Shown here piece after piece: positions 15,689 to 18,277 of a stretch of DNA of 64,000 nucleotides. Location: NCBI RefSeq assembly GCF_001677475.2, contig NZ_CP015229.1. One strand, 5' to 3'. The stretch comes from Escherichia coli. Lineage in GTDB: Bacteria; Pseudomonadota; Gammaproteobacteria; Enterobacterales; Enterobacteriaceae. A program made the position numbers and the translations under genes. The first letter of the stretch is position 1. The number at the start of each line of letters is the position of its first letter. A model generated the notes under the pieces. The model had not been told where the DNA came from, ran no database searches, and saw nothing but the letters and a program-made list of their open reading frames with translations.

Positions 15689-16366
15689 ATGAGTGCGTCG
15701 TTGGCGATCCTGACCATCGGCATTGTACCTATGCAGGAAGTTTTGCCGCTCCTGACAGAATACATTGACGAAGATAATATTTCCCATCATAGCCTGCTGG
15801 GGAAGTTAAGCCGCGAAGAAGTGATGACGGAGTACGCGCCAGAAGCAGGCGAAGACACAATTCTCACATTATTAAATGACAACCAGCTGGCCCATGTTTC
15901 GCGTCGTAAAGTGGAACGAGACCTGCAAGGTGTGGTTGAAGTGCTCGATAATCAGGGTTATGACGTCATTTTATTAATGAGTACAGCAAACATTAGTAGT
16001 ATGACTGCGCGTAATACGATCTTTCTTGAACCGTCGCGAATATTGCCTCCGCTGGTTTCTTCTATTGTTGAAGATCATCAGGTGGGGGTTATCGTTCCGG
16101 TTGAGGAGATGCTGCCCGTTCAGGCGCAAAAATGGCAAATTTTGCAGAAATCGCCGGTATTTTCATTGGGTAACCCCATTCATGATTCAGAACAAAAAAT
16201 CATTGATGCCGGGAAAGAATTACTGGCAAAAGGGGCTGATGTCATCATGCTGGATTGTTTAGGATTTCACCAACGTCATCGCGATTTACTGCAAAAACAG
16301 CTCGATGTTCCTGTCTTGCTCTCTAACGTATTGATTGCACGGCTGGCTGCGGAATTACTGGTGTAA
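15689..16366 (+). CDS. aroM: Protein AroM
   Basis: 225 aa; synteny. Confidence 0.85.
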
Positions 16367-16437
16367 TTTTGCGTGACAGCCAGCGCCTCTGGCCCCTATA
16401 GTGAAGTAGATGTTCAACTACCAGACAGGGCCAGTTT

Positions 16438-16722
16438 ATGCTTCAAAGTAATGAGTACTTTTCAGGCAAAGTGAAATCGATCGGCTTTTCCAGCAGCAGC
16501 ACTGGTCGCGCCAGCGTGGGTGTTATGGTTGAAGGTGAATACACCTTCAGCACCGCTGAGCCTGAAGAGATGACGGTAATCAGTGGCGCGCTGAATGTGT
16601 TACTGCCTGACGCGACCGACTGGCAAGTGTATGAAGCCGGTTCGGTGTTTAATGTTCCCGGTCACAGCGAGTTTCATCTGCAAGTTGCCGAACCCACCTC
16701 TTATCTGTGCCGCTATCTGTAA
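16438..16722 (+). CDS. ppnP: Pyrimidine/purine nucleoside phosphorylase PpnP (YaiE), cupin fold
   Basis: 94 aa; synteny. Confidence 0.85.
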
Positions 16723-16929
16723 TTCCTCGCCTTCCCCTTGAACGGGAGGGCATTTTTCTGAAATGTCCTCTCTTTAACCCATAATAATATTTCCTTTGCT
16801 GGGATTTTTTCGATTTCCGATATATTCATAATTCATCAAGGTTGATATAAATATCAGCGAAGATCTCCAGATATTGTTGCGGAACTGGCTACGATAAAAG
16901 ATAAATCAGATGATGAATGGTGGCGTGCA

Positions 16930-17208
16930 TTGCTGCAAAGTCGCAATGATCATTTGCGCCAAACGGCATTGCGCAACGCACATACCCCGGTGTTGTTAAC
17001 GGCATTGACTGAGTCTCAGGATCGGTCGCTGGCTATTAATAATCCACAGCTGGCTGCCGATGTGAAAACGGTGTGGCTAAAAGAGGAGCCATCATTACTT
17101 TTATTTGTCGATCAACCCGCTCTTCCGCAGTTACGGGATTTAGTGAAAAACGGGGCAACGCGGAAAATTCGCAGTGAAGCGCGTCACCGGCTTGAGGAAA
17201 AACAATGA
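16930..17208 (+). CDS. ykiA: Hypothetical small protein in the ykiA position; no ATG start (TTG), possibly a gene remnant
   Basis: 92-aa ORF; the frame stays open upstream to a stop at 16843 without any ATG. Confidence 0.35.
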   Translation: MLQSRNDHLRQTALRNAHTPVLLTALTESQDRSLAINNPQLAADVKTVWLKEEPSLLLFVDQPALPQLRDLVKNGATRKIRSEARHRLEEKQ

Positions 17209-17310
17209 CACAACGCCCCTGGAGCAAGTTACAGCGTAAAACGCATAATATTGCTGCGCTAAAAATTATTGCCCGCCGTAGCGAATAATTATATTCCTGG
17301 TGTGGCTTCG

Positions 17311-17340
17311 TACGCCGGATAAGACGCGGCAGGCGTCGCA
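17311..17340. repeat. REP (repetitive extragenic palindrome) element
   Basis: GCCGGATAAGACGCGGCAGGCGTCGCATCCGGCA resembles the E. coli REP consensus. Confidence 0.6.
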
Positions 17341-17365
17341 TCCGGCATTAAAGGAAAATCAGCAA

Positions 17366-18277
17366 TTAACGTTGTGCTTCGCCACCTAATCCTTCGATCA
17401 GGTTTTGAATTAACGCTGCCAGTTCACCAGTCATCAGGATGAAATCGGCATCAAAACGCTGGGCGAAATCTTCACGGTCGATATCTTCGTTTTGATCGCG
17501 CAGCTCGTCGCAGAACTTCAGACGCTTGAGCGAACCATCGTCGCACATCACAAACTGAATGCGCTGCTGCCAGTCGAGCGCCAGTTTAGTCACCACTTTT
17601 CCGGCTTCAATGTGATTAGTGATCTCTTCGCTGGTCAGATCTTGTTTCTTCGCGCGGATCACGCCGCCATCTTCCAGCAACGATTTCAGCTCGGCTTCAT
17701 CAAGCAGCTGGAAGCCCTGTGCCGCACTACCGGAACGTACCCATTCGGTCAGCGTCAGTTCAATCGGGTTTTCCATGCTCAATGGTACAACCGGTAACGA
17801 CCCCAGGCTTTTACGCAGCAGTGCCAGCGTATCTTCCGCTTTTTTGGCACTGGCGCAGTCCACCATAATCAAACCATTAACCGTGTCGATCCACATCATT
17901 GTCTGGCTAAAACGGCTGAAAGCACGCGGCAGCAGAGAGTGCAGCACTTCGTCTTTCAGCGAATCTTTTTCGGTTTTCTTCAGCTTACGCGCCTGTTCCG
18001 CTTCCAGTTTGGCGATTTTCGCTTCCAGCGCCTGTTTAATCACCGGAGACGGGAGGATTTTTTCTTCTTTGCGTGCGCAGATAACAATTTGACCATTGGC
18101 AACGTGCGTTAACGCATCGCTGTGCGATCCCATCGGAGGAACCCAGCCCATCTTCGCCATGTCCTGGCTGCCGCATGGGGTAAATGCCATCGAGGCTAGC
18201 TGTTTTTCCATCTCTTCTGCACGCAGCGAAATCTCGCGGCTAAGACGGTAAACCATTAAATTTTTGAACCACAGCAT
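17366..18277 (-). CDS. rdgC: Recombination-associated protein RdgC
   Basis: 303 aa from [12 protein letters not shown]; synteny. Confidence 0.9.

Follow-up and report, generated by a model that had tools for sequence, protein, structure and literature searches.

A start-less reading frame between ppnP and rdgC of Escherichia coli is very probably ykiA, the 3' remnant of a DUF2773 gene truncated by deletion

The open reading frame (ORF) between ppnP and rdgC in the stretch of Escherichia coli DNA analysed here (the window, 64,000 nucleotides) is, with little doubt, the 5'-truncated pseudogene ykiA, the tail of a gene whose remainder was lost to deletion. That the ORF is a pseudogene is already embodied in the reference annotation. 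Our analysis adds the course of the decay, through two deletions whose junctions and order are given together with an intermediate allele, and evidence that the adjoining small gene ykiD is a relic as well.

The gene order in the window, aroL, yaiA, aroM, ppnP, the ORF, rdgC, mak and araJ, is that of the E. coli ykiA neighbourhood. An earlier note on this DNA had described a frame without a regular start, and the sequence and its conceptual translation agree: the frame follows a TGA at 16843-16845, stays open to the TGA at 17206-17208, and from 16846 contains 120 sense codons and no methionine codon. As the note had it, the earliest ATG, GTG or TTG in frame in the ORF list is the TTG of a 92-codon ORF (16930..17208, + strand). 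Its remark that this TTG has no obvious ribosome-binding site is right only approximately, as a GGTGG sits 6 nt upstream, with a predicted anti-Shine-Dalgarno duplex of -4.9 kcal/mol; this is nevertheless of ordinary strength, since about 17.5% of the sampled window positions score -4.0 kcal/mol or better. Judging from the alignment with intact genes, the TTG is the former internal codon Leu667 and a "start" in appearance only; its context is identical in the full-length genes of O157 and LHM10-1, and the codon is TTA in E4930. From 16870 on, the open frame is explained by descent from coding sequence and not by chance, and the eight codons at 16846-16869 are non-coding DNA that is stop-free by accident.

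The product had been read in the earlier note as the C-terminal part of a larger protein, possibly a decayed fragment of a longer gene, and comparison with other genomes bears this out. Over their whole length, positions 16870-17205 align with residues 647-759 of a DUF2773-containing protein of 759 amino acids, so that the ykiA remnant (16870..17208, + strand) comprises 112 codons and the stop. O157:H7, LHM10-1, GCA_018578905.1 and Escherichia sp. E4930 all carry the full-length gene at this place between ppnP and rdgC, and the curated annotation of the stretch is already that of a pseudogene. The conceptual translation passes the Pfam family DUF2773 (PF10971) with 127.3 bits against a gathering score of 25, its residues 41-120 matching positions 1-81 of the 81-position profile.

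The ppnP-rdgC locus of E. coli O157:H7 strain H6437 (L003) was used as full-length reference. The remnant is 96% identical to L003 3001-3342 (blastn), and over the 120-residue conceptual translation there is 86% amino acid identity with the O157:H7 protein WP_120795310.1 (759 aa), whose residues 647-759 are the counterpart of the remnant. Both loci have the same promoter region and the same downstream gene overlap, but the window lacks the ATG, the signal/anchor helix, the beta-solenoid (about residues 65-176) and about 400 alpha-solenoid residues of the full-length protein. There is no ATG, GTG or TTG in frame 5' of 16930 and no N-terminal hydrophobic helix, and of a C-terminal alpha-solenoid of about 520 residues only the last 113 are represented.

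In the K-12 reference, the pseudogene ykiA (b0392), at 408609..408950, corresponds to window positions 16870..17208, and the NCBI pipeline names the equivalent stretch "DUF2773 domain-containing protein", incomplete and missing its N-terminus. The window has the two features by which we recognise ykiA (b0392), namely the ppnP-ykiA-ykiD-rdgC slot and an identical deletion junction; it also has the same flanking genes and the same ATGA overlap with ykiD, at about 97% nucleotide identity over the locus. The two remnants differ at 14 nucleotide positions, 10 of them amino-acid-changing, and K-12 reads HTPALLLTT where the window reads HTPV-LLTA; this absent codon leaves the window with 112 codons against 113 in K-12 and O157. 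Over the 22 kb at 8000-30000, none of 5,426 complete E. coli genomes exceeds 98.4% identity to the window, which would come from a lineage missing from that set, possibly a Shigella or an unusual Escherichia.

The ppnP-rdgC spacer of O157:H7 H6437 contains an intact 2,280-bp gene (759 aa) followed by a 450-bp SF0329-family gene (149 aa), whose ATG overlaps the TGA of the 759-aa gene. The same two-gene unit is found across carriers, with an overlapping SF0329-family gene of 149-151 aa. Window and reference are related through co-linear blastn blocks. Window 16401-16864 corresponds to L003 598-1061 and stops 1 nt short of the ancestral ATG (L003 1063); window 16870-17236 corresponds to L003 3001-3370, that is, to the final 342 nt of the large gene and the initial 32 nt of the small one; and window 17227-17500 corresponds to L003 3733-4007, with the end of the small gene, the spacer and the 3' end of rdgC. 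A deletion of about 1.94 kb took out the start codon and 646 codons, and the old 5' leader is now fused to codon 647.

The junction of this deletion reads GAAGAT/CTCCA/GATATTGTT, with the 5' leader on the left and the sequence from codon 647 on the right. The five bases CTCCA (16865..16869, + strand) occur in all remnant alleles and in the SF0329-only allele and are missing from full-length alleles; no source for these five bases was identifiable. GAAGAT/CTCCA/GATATT is identical in six of six remnant alleles (the window, 2014C-3338, K-12, clone D i2, ST648 and Escherichia sp. MOD1-EC7003), and the SF0329-only allele carries the same junction. Because of this identity we count one deletion event of about 1.94 kb, and the shared junction indicates that it probably had a single origin. 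The polarity is that of loss and not of gain, since a diverged Escherichia, E4930, has the full-length gene in the same slot, at 76% nucleotide identity (flanking genes, 87-96%). In GCA_018578905.1 the full-length gene in this slot is 92% identical in nucleotides to the O157 gene, and LHM10-1 is also full-length there.

The ORF ykiD (b4732; 17205-17288, + strand; 27 aa) follows, its ATG overlapping the ykiA TGA as ATGA. In the DNA alignment, YkiD consists of residues 1-11 and the final 16 residues of the 151-aa SF0329-family protein, the part between them having been lost in an in-frame deletion of 372 bp bounded by two GTTAC(A/G)GCG stretches of the gene. The junction lies in this microhomology, at 17227..17236 (+ strand), where the blastn segments 16870-17236 and 17227-17500 overlap. 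Escherichia sp. MOD1-EC7003 (L014 5487-6280), the sole exact match to the first junction pattern in a DNA pattern scan of species-representative genomes, provides an intermediate allele: it has the first junction with an intact 151-aa SF0329 gene, and the 372-bp deletion therefore came second. The 27-aa YkiD does not match the SF0329 profiles PF25753 and NF049912, which give 81.4 and 93.7 bits with the intact O157 protein of 149 aa, and in NCBIfam the SF0329_fam match is likewise to the intact downstream protein only.

YkiD, the only product of the locus with protein evidence, has been detected in K-12 by a chromosomal SPA tag (VanOrsdel et al. 2018, PMC6001520), and the published sequence is identical to the window product (MTQRPWSKLQRKTHNIAALKIIARRSE). 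Its Shine-Dalgarno sequence GAGGA (17194..17198, + strand; -6.2 kcal/mol) lies 6 nt 5' of the ATG, within the 3' end of the remnant, and is identical in L003, that is, inherited from the ancestral gene pair. Because ykiD has its own Shine-Dalgarno sequence in the last codons of the remnant, inherited unchanged, YkiD synthesis needs no translation of the remnant. By alignment, YkiD is thus shown to be a still-translated gene relic and not a purpose-built small gene, an origin for which no statement was found in the searchable literature. It stands as a caution for small-protein catalogues, in which YkiD counts as validated: detected translation is not the same as evolved function. Independently, Escherichia sp. 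E4930 (L012 6268-6430) has lost most of its SF0329 gene while keeping the full-length 759-aa gene; the leftover is the 3' end only and begins at nearly the same GTTACGGCG motif as the K-12-type deletion.

Among the 5,426 complete E. coli genomes, 4,541 have the arrangement of remnant and ykiD and 444 have at least 80% of the two-gene unit; the remaining genomes include SF0329-only alleles and an IS1 replacement. A total of 54 protein clusters (90% identity) match the remnant, all of them short calls. Those with a source name are all from E. coli except for one Staphylococcus-labelled 241-bp contig, which looks like contamination. Many of the remnant protein entries are frameshifted, near either end, or fused, one of the fusions joining the remnant with the tail of YkiD. 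A 92-aa product conserved across species, which the earlier note had set against the idea of decay, did not turn up: short forms were found only in E. coli and one close Escherichia species. A third allele, the SF0329-only one (E. coli AHM8C160RI, L004 2666-2722; NADC1036, L010), has the junction and 18 nt of the remnant, followed by the SF0329 ATG; the remainder of the remnant was deleted later than the first event, exactly as far as this ATG. In both annotated examples of it (AHM8C160RI and NADC1036), the SF0329 gene is flagged as frameshifted.

None of the six remnant alleles examined has a disrupted frame (112-113 codons). Amino-acid-changing and silent differences stand at 19:8 among the six remnants and at 54:44 in the corresponding segment of four full-length genes, where neutral change would give about 3.4:1; the excess in the remnants is not significant (Fisher p=0.19) and amounts to a trend only. 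The dN/dS ratio is 0.23-0.33 in deep full-length comparisons and ranges from 0.3 to 1.4 in remnant pairs, which differ by a handful of changes; pairwise ratios on 339-342 nt have too little power, and recombination confounds them. Only 2 nt separate the K-12 remnant from the LHM10-1 full-length tail, so that the age of the remnant in each allele is blurred by recombination. Neither the cross-species conservation nor the purifying selection expected of a functional gene was found, given this p value and the occurrence of frameshifted and fused variants, and we infer that the remnant itself gives no functional protein. In annotation, the ORF should remain a pseudogene and the TTG should not be raised to a start codon.

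The ppnP-ykiA intergenic region opens, right after the ppnP stop, with a terminator-like hairpin and T-run (16729..16751, + strand; 8-bp stem, 6 G-C pairs, ATTTTT tail) that is kept in all alleles. Farther downstream, the putative promoter element TGaTATAAA (16843..16851, + strand) resembles an extended -10 element and belongs to a block identical in full-length and remnant alleles; the upstream stop of the frame, TGA 16843-16845, is its TG-a part. A sigma-70 scan did not report this element, as there is no -35 to match. In the alignment with L003, 16846..16864 (+ strand) is the former promoter and 5' leader of the ancestral gene and makes up most of the eight extra open codons. Using 5'-RACE and lacZ fusions, Salscheider et al. 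(PMC3950696) mapped a ykiA promoter to this intergenic region, and BglJ-RcsB activation was 4- to 73-fold across their ten target promoters, ykiA among them. Since the ancestral promoter survives, the relic is still transcribed. The large gene has a G+C content of 42% against 51% for the window, and low G+C with BglJ-RcsB control would be as expected of acquired, normally silenced DNA. In O157:H7 (L003 1043-1065), the ancestral ATG shows no Shine-Dalgarno pairing (+0.2 kcal/mol) and follows the -10-like element by only about 12 nt; the leader from which the intact gene is translated may thus be very short or missing altogether.

Full-length relatives of the 759-aa protein were sought by a profile search of 1.84 billion cluster representatives with the full-length family profile, which returned 273 representatives at E<=1e-3, 50 of them at E<=1e-30. 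Most relatives have 750-800 aa and match along the whole profile, and those of the short, C-terminal-only entries that were inspected are fragments from E. coli. The named distant members are Gammaproteobacteria, such as Tahibacter and Pseudomonas, and one homologue bears the name "polymer-forming cytoskeletal protein". Positions of about 60-180, the beta-solenoid, are covered by many profile matches and are the part most widely conserved in distant homologues. The PF10971 profile covers only the final 81 residues of the 759-aa proteins; DUF2773 coincides closely with the piece left in the K-12 pseudogene, and the natural unit is a secreted or anchored protein of 750-800 aa with beta- and alpha-solenoid. 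A 746-aa homologue (48-49% identity) on an enterobacterial contig (Logan SRR28530750, L011 6001-8241) has no SF0329 partner and is flanked by sprT and a galP-like transporter; its location elsewhere without this partner implies that the large gene moves independently of its E. coli neighbour.

An AlphaFold2 model of the 759-aa protein, based on a shallow alignment of six sequences (mean pLDDT 73.5, pTM 0.39), predicts an N-terminal hydrophobic helix, a beta-solenoid at about 65-176 and an alpha-solenoid from about 240 to the end, and within it the remnant segment is confidently predicted as helical (pLDDT 86-90). The best PDB matches to the model are HEAT/armadillo folds (PP2A A subunit, importins and designed armadillo proteins), with low TM-scores of 0.15-0.29. 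Distant homologues give mostly near-threshold matches to the LRV/HEAT families (PF01816, PF25591, PF02985), a few of them above cut-off; the E. coli protein stays below the Pfam cut-offs (HEAT 15.5 bits against 23.5), and its N-terminal beta-solenoid and secretion signal are foreign to these families. Neither the SF0329 protein (best E=0.13) nor the full-length profile had a significant match by sequence among solved structures, the PADLOC defence-system profiles matched neither ancestral protein, and a literature search on SF0329 and DUF2773 returned nothing relevant.

The history of the locus thus begins with two overlapping genes in the ppnP-rdgC spacer, one for a 759-aa protein predicted to combine an N-terminal signal/anchor helix with a beta-solenoid and an extended HEAT/LRV-like alpha-solenoid, the other for an SF0329-family protein of 149-151 aa. 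The deletion of about 1.94 kb fused the 5' leader to codon 647 and left an open frame without a start, whose upstream stop would fall in the old promoter and whose apparent TTG start is an internal leucine codon. The 372-bp in-frame deletion later shrank the SF0329 gene to the 27-aa YkiD ORF. The surviving promoter keeps the relic transcribed, and YkiD is made from the inherited Shine-Dalgarno sequence. Of this history, the homology, the two junctions, the order of the deletions and the frequencies of the alleles are shown directly.

Other explanations for the persistence of the frame were weighed. We consider it unlikely that the remnant is kept for a non-coding role, as a 5' leader that provides promoter-proximal spacing and a Shine-Dalgarno sequence for the SF0329-family gene and later for ykiD. 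About 15 nt would suffice for this and not 340, retention is equally explained by a lack of further deletion, and both YkiD and the SF0329 family are without known function. This role is nevertheless consistent with the position of the ykiD GAGGA inside the final codons of the remnant, with the ancestral ATGA overlap, with the remnant 5' of an intact SF0329 gene in the intermediate allele, with the detectable synthesis of YkiD (PMC6001520) and with the frameshifted SF0329 gene in both annotated alleles whose remnant is deleted precisely up to the ATG. There is, in our opinion, only a slim chance that the relic locus is becoming a set of new genes, with a BglJ-RcsB promoter, a YkiD with its own function and maybe an alpha-solenoid fragment made from the TTG or a near-cognate codon. 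If true, it would be a documented case of small proteins arising from pseudogene debris.

A still slimmer chance attaches to the remnant being a new and useful small gene, with a product of 92 aa if translation began at the TTG, or of at most about 111 aa if it began at a near-cognate ATT, CTG or ATA, folding as a stand-alone alpha-solenoid of four to five repeats. The intact frame in six of six alleles, the regulated promoter upstream (PMC3950696), the Shine-Dalgarno-like GGTGG at -4.9 kcal/mol before the TTG and the segment's confident helical prediction in the full-length model (pLDDT about 86-90) would all fit such a gene. They are outweighed by an inherited TTG that is an internal leucine codon, by an architecture not found beyond E. 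coli and one close Escherichia species, by the many frameshifted or fused variants, by E. coli lineages in which the remnant is wholly deleted or IS1-replaced, by the 19:8 ratio against a neutral value of about 3.4:1, and by the curators' classification of ykiA as a pseudogene. That the short form is ancestral and the 2.3-kb O157:H7 gene arose by insertion or extension, as its low G+C (42% against 51% for the window, as in acquired DNA) and its presence in only 8% of complete E. coli genomes could suggest, is effectively refuted by a remnant that has no start codon and begins mid-repeat, by full-length forms in the same slot of diverged Escherichia lineages, by distant Gammaproteobacterial homologues with the same 750-800-aa architecture and by 5 nt of junction filler typical of a deletion scar.

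Some further elements surround the ykiA pseudogene. A REP-type palindromic element (17313..17360, not assigned to a strand) lies between ykiD and rdgC, outside the remnant, with sub-threshold naRNA4 matches on both strands, and a related REP copy is present in the mak-araJ spacer. Over 16300-17800, Rfam gave only these sub-threshold REP-like (naRNA4) matches and no RNA gene beneath the ORF. An antisense ATG ORF of 101 codons (17036-17341, - strand), opposite the 3' end of ykiA, ykiD and the REP element, is probably spurious and is unannotated in all annotated records examined. The earliest ATGs on the presumed transcript (16910 and 16913) open a short ORF, MMNGGVHCCKV..., at 16910-16999 in the +1 frame relative to ykiA, and in the database variant P0064 a frameshift joins this ORF to the frame of ykiA.
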